Source of the DNA: Lytechinus pictus
Lineage: Eukaryota
Length of the DNA: 64,000 bases
Reading direction: 5' to 3'
NCBI RefSeq assembly: GCF_037042905.1
Contig: NC_087251.1
Span: forward strand, 36,706,001 to 36,770,000
Part shown: in pieces, positions 53,201 through 56,200 of the stretch
How positions within the stretch are numbered: position 1 is the first letter of the stretch
How the letters are laid out: every line of letters starts with the position of its first letter
Notes under the pieces: model-generated
The model's input: only the letters and a program-made list of their open reading frames with translations
The model's database searches: none
What the model was told of the DNA's origin: nothing
Translations under genes and position numbers: made by a program

Positions 53201-56200
53201 TCGAGGCAATTCAATTAGCTGGTTTATCTCAATGGGATATCTAGAACAATCAAACACAAAAAAGTGAGAGATCTGAAAATGTTATGAAATAAAAAAAAAT
53301 AAAACTCCAATCATAAATAGAGACAAATTGATGAACATTTGAAAGTGATCAAGTTATATTAGTTGGTACGCATGATTTTAAAGCAAACTATAAACAAAGA
53401 AATAAAAATTACATAACAATTTCTACAGAATTGAAGATACATCAATCTGAATGACAATCTTTGGTTTTTTTTTACTGCTGTCACTTTTTTCCTTTCAGTC
53501 GATGAGAGCACCACCTTTTGATCATGTCTTCCATGAGGTGCGAGGTCATATGCTTTCGGTCCTCTGCTTGCTTGCATACTAGCATTCATGCTTTCTTAGA
53601 AATCATGTAAAATCCACCACCACCATCTTTAGATCATGTCTCCCATGATGACTTCTGAACCATTGACTCTATGGCCGAAAGGCAAATCAGAACCACTACA
53701 CCGCAACAATTTGCCATCATCTCCCCTTATTTACCTCACCAGACCTGAGTTTTGATCAGTAATCTTTATCTTGATATCTGGATGAGAGCACCATCGTTTG
53801 ATCATATCTTTCATGATGAGTTTTGAATTATCGACTATCTAAATGTAAAGAACTCAGAACCACTACACCACAACAATTTGCCAACATCATCTCCCCTTAC
53901 TTACCTCACCAGACCCGAGTTTTGTTCGGTCATCTTTATCTTGATATCTGGATGAGAGCACCATCGTTTGATCATATCTTTCATGATGAGTTTTGAACTC
54001 TTGACTAACTAAATGGAAAGAACTCAGAACCACTACACCACAACAATTTGCCATCATCTCCCCTTAACTTACCTCACCAGACCTGAGTTTTGTTCGGTCA
54101 TCTTTATCTTGATATCTGGATGAGAGCACCATCGTTTGATCATGTCTTCCATGATGAGTTTTGAACTCTTGACCCACTGACTAAAAGGCATGTAAAAGCC
54201 ACTACACCGCATCATTTAACCATCATCTCCCCTTACTTACCTCACCAGACCTGAGTTTTGTTCGGTCATCTTTATCTTGATATCTGGATGAGAGCACCAT
54301 TGTTTGATCATGTCTTCCATAATGAGTTTTGAACCCTTGACCCACTGACTGAAAGGCATGTAAAAGCCACTACACCGCATCATTTAACCATCATCTCCCC
54401 TTACTTACCTCACCAGACCCGAGTTTTGTTCGGTCATCTTTATCTTGATATCTGGATGAGAGCACCATCGTTTGATCATGTCTTCCATGATGAGTTATGA
54501 ACCCTTGACCCACTGACTGAAAGGCATGTAAAAGCCACTACACCGCATCATTTAACCATCATCTCCCCTTACTTACCTCACCAGACCTGAGTTTTGTTCG
54601 GTCATCTTTATCTTGATATCTGGATGAGAGCACCATCGTTTGATCATGTCTTCCATGATGAGTTTTGAACCCTTGACCCACTGACTGAAAGGCATGTAAA
54701 AGCCACTACACCGCATCATTTAACCATCATCTCCCCTTACTTACCTCACCAGACCCGAGTTTTGTTCGGTCATCTTTATCTTGATATCTGGATGAGAGCA
54801 CCATCGTTTGATCATATCTTTCATGATGAGTTTTGAACTCTTGACTAACTAAATGGAAAGAACTCAGAACCACTACACCACAACAATTTGCCATCATCTC
54901 CCCTTAACTTACCTCACCAGACCTGAGTTTTGTTCGGTCATCTTTATCTTGATATCTGGATGAGAGCACCATCGTTTGATCATGTCTTCCATGATGAGTT
55001 ATGAACCCTTGACCCACTGACTGATAGGCATGTAAAAGCCACTACACCACATCATTTAACCATCATCTCCCCTTACTTACCTCACCAGACCTGAGTTTTG
55101 TTCGGTCATCTTTATCTTGATATCTGGATGAGAGCACCATTGTTTGATCATGTCTTCCATGATGAGTTATGAACCCTTGACCCACTGACTGAAAGGCATG
55201 TAAAAGCCACTACACCACATCATTTAACCATCATCTCCCCTTAACTTACCTCACCAGACCTGAGTTTTGTTTGGTCATCTTTATCTTGATATCTGGATGA
55301 GAGCACCATCGTTTGATCATGTCTTCCATGATGAGTTTTGAACCCTTGACCCACTGACTAAAAGGCATGTAAAAGCCACTACACCACATCATTTAAACAT
55401 CATCTCCCCTTACTTACCTCACCAGACCCGAGTTTTGTTCAGTCATCTTTATCTTGATATCTGGATGAGAGCACCATCGTTTGATCATGTCCTCCATGAT
55501 GGGCGTTTCTGAGCAGTCTAGGAGGGTCGCTAGATTGATAGGTAGGCCCAGGTACTTACACAGTGGTTCAAACTCATCAATGCCGGCATCTAAGTAGACA
55601 AAATCATACGAGAAAGAGCTAACAGGCAATGTCTTTACTAGTAGGATATATGTACAGAGTATAAGAATAACTGTAATTACAAGGAGAAAAAAAATAATAA
55701 ATATTAAATCTTAGTTCCTTCATGAAAAAGTGCACTCCATTTATACATAATCTGCAAATTGTAGGAAATAAACCACAAATACAATTCCTGGGAAAAATCT
55801 ATCTCATCTCCCATATAATCCTTAGTTTTTCTTGTTCTCTACTAAATTGTAATAGTAACCAGTTTTAACTTCATGAAACTGTACCTATATATTGATTATT
55901 TCTGGGGAGCGTTTCATTAACATTTGTCATCTGAAAAGTTGTCAGATCCGACATCTTTCCTTGATTTTGATTGATTCAGCACTGTTACTATGGTAACTGT
56001 TGCATGAAACAGAACTTGTCGGATAAAACGTCTGACAAGTCCATTCATGAAAAACTTACTTGGTCTAGAGCAAGTCATGATGATATATTTTACTATTCTC
56101 ATTACATATGTTTTTAATCTGCATATGGTTCTATCACTATTGTCCATTTCAATATTCTTACATAGTATTAAGAATAATAAATTGCTATTGTTTTTTTTTC

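Follow-up and report, generated by a model that had tools for sequence, protein, structure and literature searches.

A minisatellite across an exon-intron boundary reiterates the 5' splice site of a UBR2 intron in the sea urchin Lytechinus pictus

The window analysed here, 64,000 nucleotides of the Lytechinus pictus genome (assembly GCF_037042905.1, contig NC_087251.1, positions 36,706,001 to 36,770,000), carries on its minus strand the C-terminal exons of a gene for the E3 ubiquitin-protein ligase UBR2. One intron of this gene contains a tandem array built from the end of the preceding exon, its donor site and adjoining intron sequence. That exon, 55418-55589, translates as AGIDEFEPLCKYLGLPINLATLLDCSETPIMEDMIKRWCSHPDIKIKMTEQNSGLV. 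A word-based protein search returned two relatives, 84% identical, and one of them is named E3 ubiquitin-protein ligase UBR2 isoform X2 (Strongylocentrotus purpuratus). Used as a tblastn query, this protein aligned with its residues 1402-1859 to minus-strand exons of the window, exon 55418-55589 corresponding to residues 1638-1695 (83%). When eight further 10-kb stretches of the same contig were added, residues 1-1859 were covered by collinear exons over about 66 kb. In the Pfam search, exon 55418-55589 matched PRT6_C with 26.9 bits against a cut-off of 26.2, and the UBR box, ClpS-like, winged-helix and PRT6_C domains are all present in the relative protein P0004.

Tandem Repeats Finder (TRF) delimits a single tandem array at 53621-55501, with a period of 168, 11.2 copies, 92% matches, 0% indels and a score of 2959. 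The array sits inside the 2177-nt intron 53241-55417, where its monomers, of minisatellite size, follow one another head to tail. Read on the minus strand, a monomer consists of the last 85 nt of UBR2 exon 55418-55589, the donor GAG/GTAAGT and about 83 nt of intron. The first monomer (unit 0) spans the exon-intron boundary, being composed of exon 55418-55502 and intron 55335-55417. A scripted search for GTGAG/GTAA found 11 sites on the minus strand, namely the authentic donor, whose last exon base is 55418, and ten pseudo-donors at 55250, 55081, 54913, 54745, 54577, 54409, 54241, 54073, 53905 and 53735. Nine of the ten are identical to the authentic 9-mer, while the last one, at 53735, reads GAG/GTAAAT and is thus weakened. 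An initial annotation made from the letters alone had described an exon end, its donor and about 83 nt of intron repeated ten more times at a 168-bp period, and both TRF and the donor count bear this out.

The copied part comprises only the last 85 of the 172 nt of the exon, and the exon acceptor at 55589 lies outside the unit. Two types of spacers can be distinguished, the main type A in seven units and type B in three (ending at 54745, 53905 and 53735). Two decayed partial copies at the far end, at about 53621-53660 and 53502-53546, extend the earlier description. In addition, a segment of 276 nt is duplicated exactly within the array (53885-54160 equals 54725-55000), at a distance of 840 nt, or five units. 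The features are listed below. Acceptor scores refer to a position weight matrix (PWM), and X1 and X20 to two contig sets of probable RNA origin, all introduced further on.

55418-55589, minus strand: authentic UBR2 exon, 172 nt, supported by tblastn, an X1 contig and Pfam; 55418-55502 is the exon half of the first monomer
53621-55501, minus strand: 168-bp minisatellite, 11.2 copies (TRF and pairwise unit matrices)
55250-55357, minus strand: A-type pseudo-exon, open, E>K, with the pseudo-donor GAG/GTAAGT at 55250; acceptor PWM score -0.8
55081-55188, minus strand: A-type pseudo-exon, in-frame TAA, R>Q; acceptor PWM score 0.9
54913-55020, minus strand: A-type pseudo-exon, in-frame TAA, acceptor tract CCTATCAG; acceptor PWM score -1.1
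54745-54912, minus strand: B-type spacer (54830-54912) and exon-derived block (54745-54829, E>K), without an in-frame acceptor
54577-54684, minus strand: A-type pseudo-exon, open; its donor is crossed by the unspliced X20 contig 54498-54606 with 0 mismatches
54409-54516, minus strand: A-type pseudo-exon, in-frame TAA (script translation)
54241-54348, minus strand: A-type pseudo-exon, open, R>Q (script translation)
54073-54180, minus strand: A-type pseudo-exon, open, G>S; the X20 74-nt contig and its junction to 53240 are placed here
53735-54072, minus strand: a pair of older units of type B, donors at 53905 and 53735 (the latter weakened to GTAAAT); spacers 21-27% from type A
53502-53734, minus strand: decayed tail, a B'' spacer with partial exon-end copies at about 53621-53660 and 53502-53546 (tblastn match 53546-53502 and own-genome matches)
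53163-53240, minus strand: next authentic exon, RYPIEINQLIELPRDYSDLMNDRSLFA, with the acceptor for the authentic donor; X1 joint 53240/55418, X20 joint of 53240 to the 54073-type exon end

Each of the seven A-type units provides 108 nt that are in phase once the phase-2 AG is prefixed, and the script reproduced all coordinates, the four open units, the three units with TAA and the 108-nt phase proposed initially. The frame is thus open in 4 of the 10 copies and interrupted by an in-frame TAA in three. The remaining three are the B-type copies, for which the absence of an in-frame acceptor was confirmed: the only nearby AG of the B spacer yields a 104-nt out-of-frame unit full of stops. Reading through any of the donors leads to R followed by a stop codon. 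A long repeat protein in another frame was also considered and rejected. The region contains 22 stop-to-stop open reading frames of at least 40 aa on both strands; the longest of those in the array has 58 aa, and none exceeds one unit.

The direction of copying was addressed by comparison with the relatives. In S. purpuratus UBR2 the repeated segment is single (...IMEDMIKRWCSHP...LVRYPIEINQLI...), and RWCS occurs once in each of the two relatives. Both are S. purpuratus-like proteins with one copy; for annotated isoforms that include a cassette this is uninformative, as L. pictus proteins seem to be missing from the set searched. The single S. purpuratus stretch ...RWCSHP...LVRYPIEINQLI... runs directly into RYPIEINQLI, which is encoded at 53163-53240 in L. 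pictus. Because the 27 repeated residues align to conserved S. purpuratus UBR2 sequence inside PRT6_C, copying went from exon to intron; this protein comparison indicates that the exon is ancestral and that the intronic copies derive from it. A tandem duplication across the exon-intron boundary, as initially suggested, therefore holds, with its direction now assigned. All ten copies carry the L. pictus residues (PDIKIK.T.QNSGLV) and none the S. purpuratus version (PSIRIKMTEHNPALV). Since the copies hold the species' own residues, the array, or its last homogenisation, is younger than those substitutions.

No locus of the 812-Mb assembly other than this one was matched by a two-unit query, by either spacer type or by a 40-nt pattern of the B' spacer, in an own-genome search that scores only the best candidates and skips very common words. 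These single-locus matches rule out, within the assembly, an origin from a genome-wide satellite or mobile element. An origin of the GGTGTAGTGG core from a transfer RNA or a short interspersed element was likewise discarded, as ARAGORN found 0 genes in 49000-58000 and 0 of 11 Rfam matches reached the gathering score. A literature search returned nothing on this UBR2 locus. A separate observation concerns an X1 contig of which about 40-60 nt agree with the B' spacer (53813-53873), while a further 255 letters are unlike the window. By bin arithmetic its depth is about 80-130 versus 29.6 for UBR2, while the B spacer is single-locus in the assembly.

To place the splice signals of the units on the scale of their own gene, GT-AG junctions were called by homology and frame. 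This gave 36 junctions, with none for four exon pairs; five calls were dropped where the pair skipped over ambiguous hits or yielded odd sites, and 31 were used for the PWM. The pseudo-donors reach 11.7 bits, the 97th percentile of the 31 inferred donors when these are scored with leave-one-out, and 0.09% of 3518 background GTs are as good. The proposed acceptors score between -1.1 and 0.9 bits, at the 0-6th percentile of the 31, and 21-31% of 3377 background AGs are as good. The pyrimidine tract described as acceptor-like is therefore weak by the standard of the gene itself.

Introns between the 31 inferred junctions are 274 to 17571 nt long, with a median of 765 nt, so that the proposed 60-nt "introns" would be far shorter than the shortest one of the gene. 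The idea that such introns arose here de novo finds no support. The 60-nt spacing alone is not prohibitive, as a single unit could be spliced by means of long introns (55418>54180); the weak acceptor remains. For sea urchin introns a mean of 1753 bp is reported, and the part of that source used here gives no minimum length (PMC3460201). Folding of a two-unit RNA revealed no unusual structure (z = 0.08), and masking of the pseudo-donors by RNA structure was rejected, since 49 of 100 shuffled sequences fold as well.

Transcript evidence comes from four runs, the contig sets X1 and X20 from two studies and the raw total-RNA runs X21 and X22, all of them shallow and without a block of nonsense-mediated decay (NMD). 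The RNA nature of X1 and X20 is deduced from their spliced contigs, and contigs drop rare variants. Among 20 sequencing runs listed for positions 49000-58900 none was given as RNA; three raw total-RNA runs of 20 Gb were chosen by species, and about 6% of them was covered. In X1, a 4610-nt contig (depth 29.6) joins 52591/53161, 53240/55418 and 55589/56911, with 0 mismatches on four exons. The ends of the skipped segments are GT..AG on the minus strand, and 53240/55418 is the canonical junction. No other X1 contig lies in the array or the intron, apart from one odd piece.

The situation in X20 is more intricate. The downstream exons are carried by an 812-nt contig (depth 10.1) whose final 30 letters agree with 54073-54102 and not with 55418-55447. 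Compared with the reference exon, this exon end differs at two synonymous CpG sites, reading ACC...TCA for ACT...TCG, and its 30 letters are matched in full by 5 of the 10 array copies, that is, by the majority version. The contig structure of X20 is that of a 31-mer graph. A contig specific to the exon, 55462-55589 (depth 7.0), reaches as far as there are 31-mers containing the exon-specific site 55492. What follows is a single 74-nt contig (depth 12.8), identical to 54073-54146. Two branches leave it, the spliced contig that leads to 53240 (depth 10.1) and an unspliced one that enters the spacer (depth 4.4). According to the bin depths, nothing else of X20 is present on 54147-54283 or 55383-55461. 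Inflow (7.0 and a few from unspliced units) balances outflow (10.1 and 4.4) without a second pass through the exon end. As no other X20 contig lies on the unit upstream of 54146, where the 74-nt contig explains the bin depth in full, the spliced flow most probably comes from the authentic exon. The exon end of X20 is probably, and most simply, an allele of the authentic exon, or the product of an exchange with a unit.

A direct junction between the exon end and 53240 is therefore present in both informative contig sets. The initial annotation had named junctions by which the matter could be decided. The direct one, 55418>53240, was seen in X1, and its counterpart in X20 joins 53240 to the majority version of the exon end. 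No junction of the exon end to TCAGTGGG was found in contigs or reads of the four shallow runs, and none of them showed a joint that skips 60 nt or one that connects the exon end with the acceptor of a unit. On the UBR2 exons of the window, coverage by raw reads is 0x in X21 and at most 2.1x in X22, the latter including two reads on 55589/56911.

Divergence between the units shows two different patterns. Among pairs of A-type units it amounts to 2.82% for the exon-derived half and 2.57% for the intron-derived one. R>Q, E>K and a spreading TAA are among the changes found in the former. With both halves diverging equally, the main unit type gives no indication that its coding sequence is constrained. 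The last 85 nt of unit 54073 are identical to those of units 54913 and 54577. Of the 11 columns that vary in the exon part, 4 are CpG transitions (9 of the 20 minor-state cells), including the two positions that set X20 apart from the reference exon; recurrent mutation is therefore plausible. The units can be told apart by columns 11, 25, 62, 63 and 74 of the exon part.

The second pattern emerges when A-type and B-type units are compared. Their spacers differ by 21-27%, whereas the adjoining 85 exon-derived nt differ only by 0-3.5% (Fisher p 1e-6 to 2e-5). If the exon part is assumed to diverge half as fast as the spacer, p ranges from 0.0007 to 0.37 over six pairs. The conserved block, about 115 nt long, starts some 10 nt ahead of the exon part and ends 21 nt beyond the donor. 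Two spacer lineages at such a distance, together with the 276-nt exact duplicate, speak against an origin of the array in a single amplification, and the initial proposal of one tandem event is left unsupported. The exact duplicate itself stems either from a very recent exchange inside the array or from an assembly duplication.

We consider it probable that the array is an intronic minisatellite whose first monomer lies over a UBR2 exon-intron boundary, so that the authentic donor is followed by ten silent copies. Among the three outcomes initially envisaged, silent decoy donors are favoured; variable 36-aa insertions and poison exons found no support and are weakened rather than refuted. Splicing would pick the most upstream donor, 55418, which together with the acceptor at 55589 would define the normal 172-nt exon, and the whole 2177-nt intron, array included, would be removed to the acceptor at 53240. 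Two reasons may account for the silence of the copies. The first donor past the acceptor of an exon would usually win, as in human examples presented below, and the copies would be without a usable acceptor ahead of them. The array itself may grow, shrink and become homogenised by unequal exchange or gene conversion, preferentially in the longest identical tract, which is formed by the exon-derived block and the donor. We infer that exchange confined to this tract, anchored by the selected exon, accounts for the mosaic conservation, and selection on the donor-bearing block is also possible.

Several points weigh against this interpretation. The contrast between types A and B is not predicted by pure neutral decay and needs homogenisation or selection on the donor-bearing block. 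Transcript evidence is thin, consisting of two assembled contig sets from two studies; the raw runs X21 and X22 gave no read-level count for 55418/53240, and NMD was not inhibited in any of the data. The X20 junction carries the array-majority ACC...TCA, and a downstream donor may have been used in that animal. The PWM is crude, as it is based on 31 homology-inferred junctions with only three confirmed by RNA, and one of the confirmed junctions (52591/53161) was placed one base off by the script (52593 instead of the 52592 of the contig). Finally, the human genes 6-16 and CBS, of comparable structure, do make use of the two pseudo-sites closest to the authentic donor (PMC1557585).

It is doubtful, and still worth stating, that the array is more than junk, either through low-level or stage-specific inclusion of units or through evolution of the 3' end of the exon in concert with its intronic copies. 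The first of these would mean a variable 36-aa insertion in the C-terminal domain of UBR2, or an NMD-coupled off-switch built by a minisatellite. In the second, an internal unit would repeatedly overwrite, through unequal exchange, the end of the exon together with its donor, and the ACC...TCA of X20 and the block of about 115 nt would be its traces.

Taken as a full alternative, rare cassette or poison exons are unlikely. A unit would be included by way of the 60-nt spacer or of long introns (55418>54180, 54073>53240), giving a 36-aa insertion in PRT6_C from the open units, or an NMD substrate from those with TAA and from the R-stop past the downstream donor. The perfect consensus of the pseudo-donors and the four open, phase-compatible units of 108 nt would allow this. 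The single-cassette route needs no 60-nt intron, the 53240 junction of X20 has the majority sequence of the array, human 6-16 and CBS splice at their nearest pseudo-sites (PMC1557585), and NMD would hide such isoforms at steady state. However, the joint they would require, from the exon end to TCAGTGGG, occurs in none of the four shallow runs, and the depth of 12.8 in X20 set against an outflow of 10.1 and 4.4 leaves no room for a second exon-end pass. Acceptors at the 0-6th percentile, stops in 3 of the 7 A-type units with nonsynonymous changes in others, and the equal divergence of exon part and spacer among A-type units speak in the same direction.

We regard as distinctly unlikely a further alternative, in which the copies serve as decoy exons or U1-binding sites and the array is kept to slow or regulate removal of the intron (retention or detention), thereby tuning UBR2 output. 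Ten consensus donors in one intron of 2.2 kb, persistence of the block of about 115 nt (the exon part and donor plus 21 nt at the start of the spacer) across lineages 21-27% apart, and unspliced unit contigs in X20 are what it would lead one to expect. For a single unit, on the other hand, unspliced sequence in X20 has a depth (4.4, distributed over as many as four copies) that is not above that of the neighbouring intron (3 to 7.6), and X1 had no contig in the intron but one odd piece. Furthermore, the human analogues need no such function, and exchange limited to the longest identical tract can explain the conservation. An assembly artefact affecting the array or its copy number is very improbable: near-identical units are hard to assemble and the 276-nt exact duplicate lies inside the array, but the units show a structured variant pattern, and a 109-nt X20 contig identical to 54498-54606 crosses a pseudo-donor and spacer into the next unit, stopping at a site that varies between units, so that the repeated arrangement exists outside this assembly, with at least two unit variants in that animal.

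Other repeats were noticed in and around the gene. Just past the 3' end of UBR2, positions 4-39871 of the window are occupied by a 186-bp satellite with about 216 copies and 88% matches, uniform in composition (GC content 0.45, GC skew about -0.18). A UBR2 intron of about 1.3 kb, flanked by the exon that ends at 52413 and the one that starts near 51124, is nearly filled by (ATC)260 at 51213-51997 and (TCA)127 at 52008-52391, the repeat beginning about 22 nt past the donor; sub-threshold Rfam matches to sR2, sR5 and sR1 in this intron are repeat artefacts. A tandem duplication of 103 bp at 49952-50160 (2.1 copies, 85% matches) spans the UBR2 stop codon, and a diverged second copy of the last 21 codons (INAKVSRKLGGASPLIKWQNM) is located at 49996-50058, in the expected position of the 3' untranslated region. 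It represents a second boundary-spanning duplication in the UBR2 gene.

In the intron upstream of exon 55418-55589, contigs of X1 and X20 reach depths in the thousands on a short element at 55854-56167. Most of the 179 and 184 reads placed in X21 and X22 fall on it, and almost all raw reads there run into unlike sequence. Joints at this element connect opposite strands or go back. It has the appearance of a dispersed repeat, present in abundance and inverted in some of its parts. An almost perfect palindrome of 113 nt at 57361-57473 on the minus strand folds with a minimum free energy of -68.7 kcal/mol (z -12.95). Its mir-7 match reaches 35.1 bits against a gathering score of 51.8 and was set aside, as the segment looks like an inverted repeat and not like evidence of a microRNA. 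Upstream of the window, neighbouring minus-strand matches to S. purpuratus UBR2 residues 171-214 (86%) and 189-215 (74%), at L028:256-387 and from L027:9964 to L028:44, suggest a tandemly duplicated, possibly alternative, exon for residues 171-215. Several further query-overlapping matches occur elsewhere along the UBR2 gene.

For invertebrates, the array cleanly exemplifies an arrangement known in a few human genes; its coding share is unusually large and its donors are of perfect consensus. If ten perfect donors 168 nt apart are truly ignored, the rule that the most upstream donor wins would extend outside mammals, and the locus would serve as a natural minigene for 5' splice-site choice in a sea urchin. 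In practical terms, gene predictors may wrongly add 108-nt exons at the array. The mosaic conservation, with fast spacers and a frozen exon-derived block, presents a small but real puzzle about sequence exchange between an array and its exon.

Comparison with known systems places the array closest to minisatellites in which the first monomer spans an exon-intron boundary, described in human F7, LMNB2, PDGF, CBS and 6-16 (Borensztajn et al. 2006, PMC1557585, from which the statements on these genes are taken). Anatomically the UBR2 array is a further case of this kind, a boundary-spanning minisatellite with reiterated 5' splice sites. In F7 intron 7 the minisatellite has a 37-bp unit in 5-9 copies and only the most upstream donor is used physiologically; experiments reported there support selection of the first functional donor in the 5'-to-3' direction. 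The likeness to F7 lies in a first monomer across the boundary and an authentic donor followed by identical pseudo-donors. The F7 unit includes 4 nt of exon, in contrast to 85 nt (28 codons) in the 168-bp unit of UBR2, and the F7 donor is weak (UGG/gugggu) while those of UBR2 are of perfect consensus. Unlike in F7, a fortuitous AG in the UBR2 array creates in-frame pseudo-exons of 108 nt; its host is a sea urchin.

LAMIN B2 (100-bp monomer, 10-15 repeats) and PDGF intron 4 (81-bp monomer, 16-18 repeats), in which only the authentic donor is used, resemble the UBR2 array in their long monomers, similar copy number and first monomer across the boundary, and differ in being vertebrate genes. Donors are also reiterated by a boundary-spanning minisatellite in 6-16 and in CBS intron 13, where the two nearest pseudo-sites are used too, constitutively, whereas none was seen in use in the shallow UBR2 data.

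Tandem exon duplication, which can give rise to cassette or mutually exclusive exons, shares with the UBR2 array the copying of exon sequence beside its source and copies that are in phase. The difference is that only the 3' half of the UBR2 exon was copied, with no acceptor inherited and with stops in copies, and inclusion was not seen in the four shallow runs. A duplicated cassette would comprise a whole exon with both splice sites, an open frame and splice sites fit for use, and the array as a whole departs from this. In the decoy-exon model, outlined for SF3B1 and OGT (PMC6097662, PMC7373989), decoys promote intron retention; such a function is possible for the UBR2 array, and the present data lend it no support. 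The system that the array resembles most is the boundary-spanning minisatellite of the human genes, here with an unusually large share of exon in each monomer.

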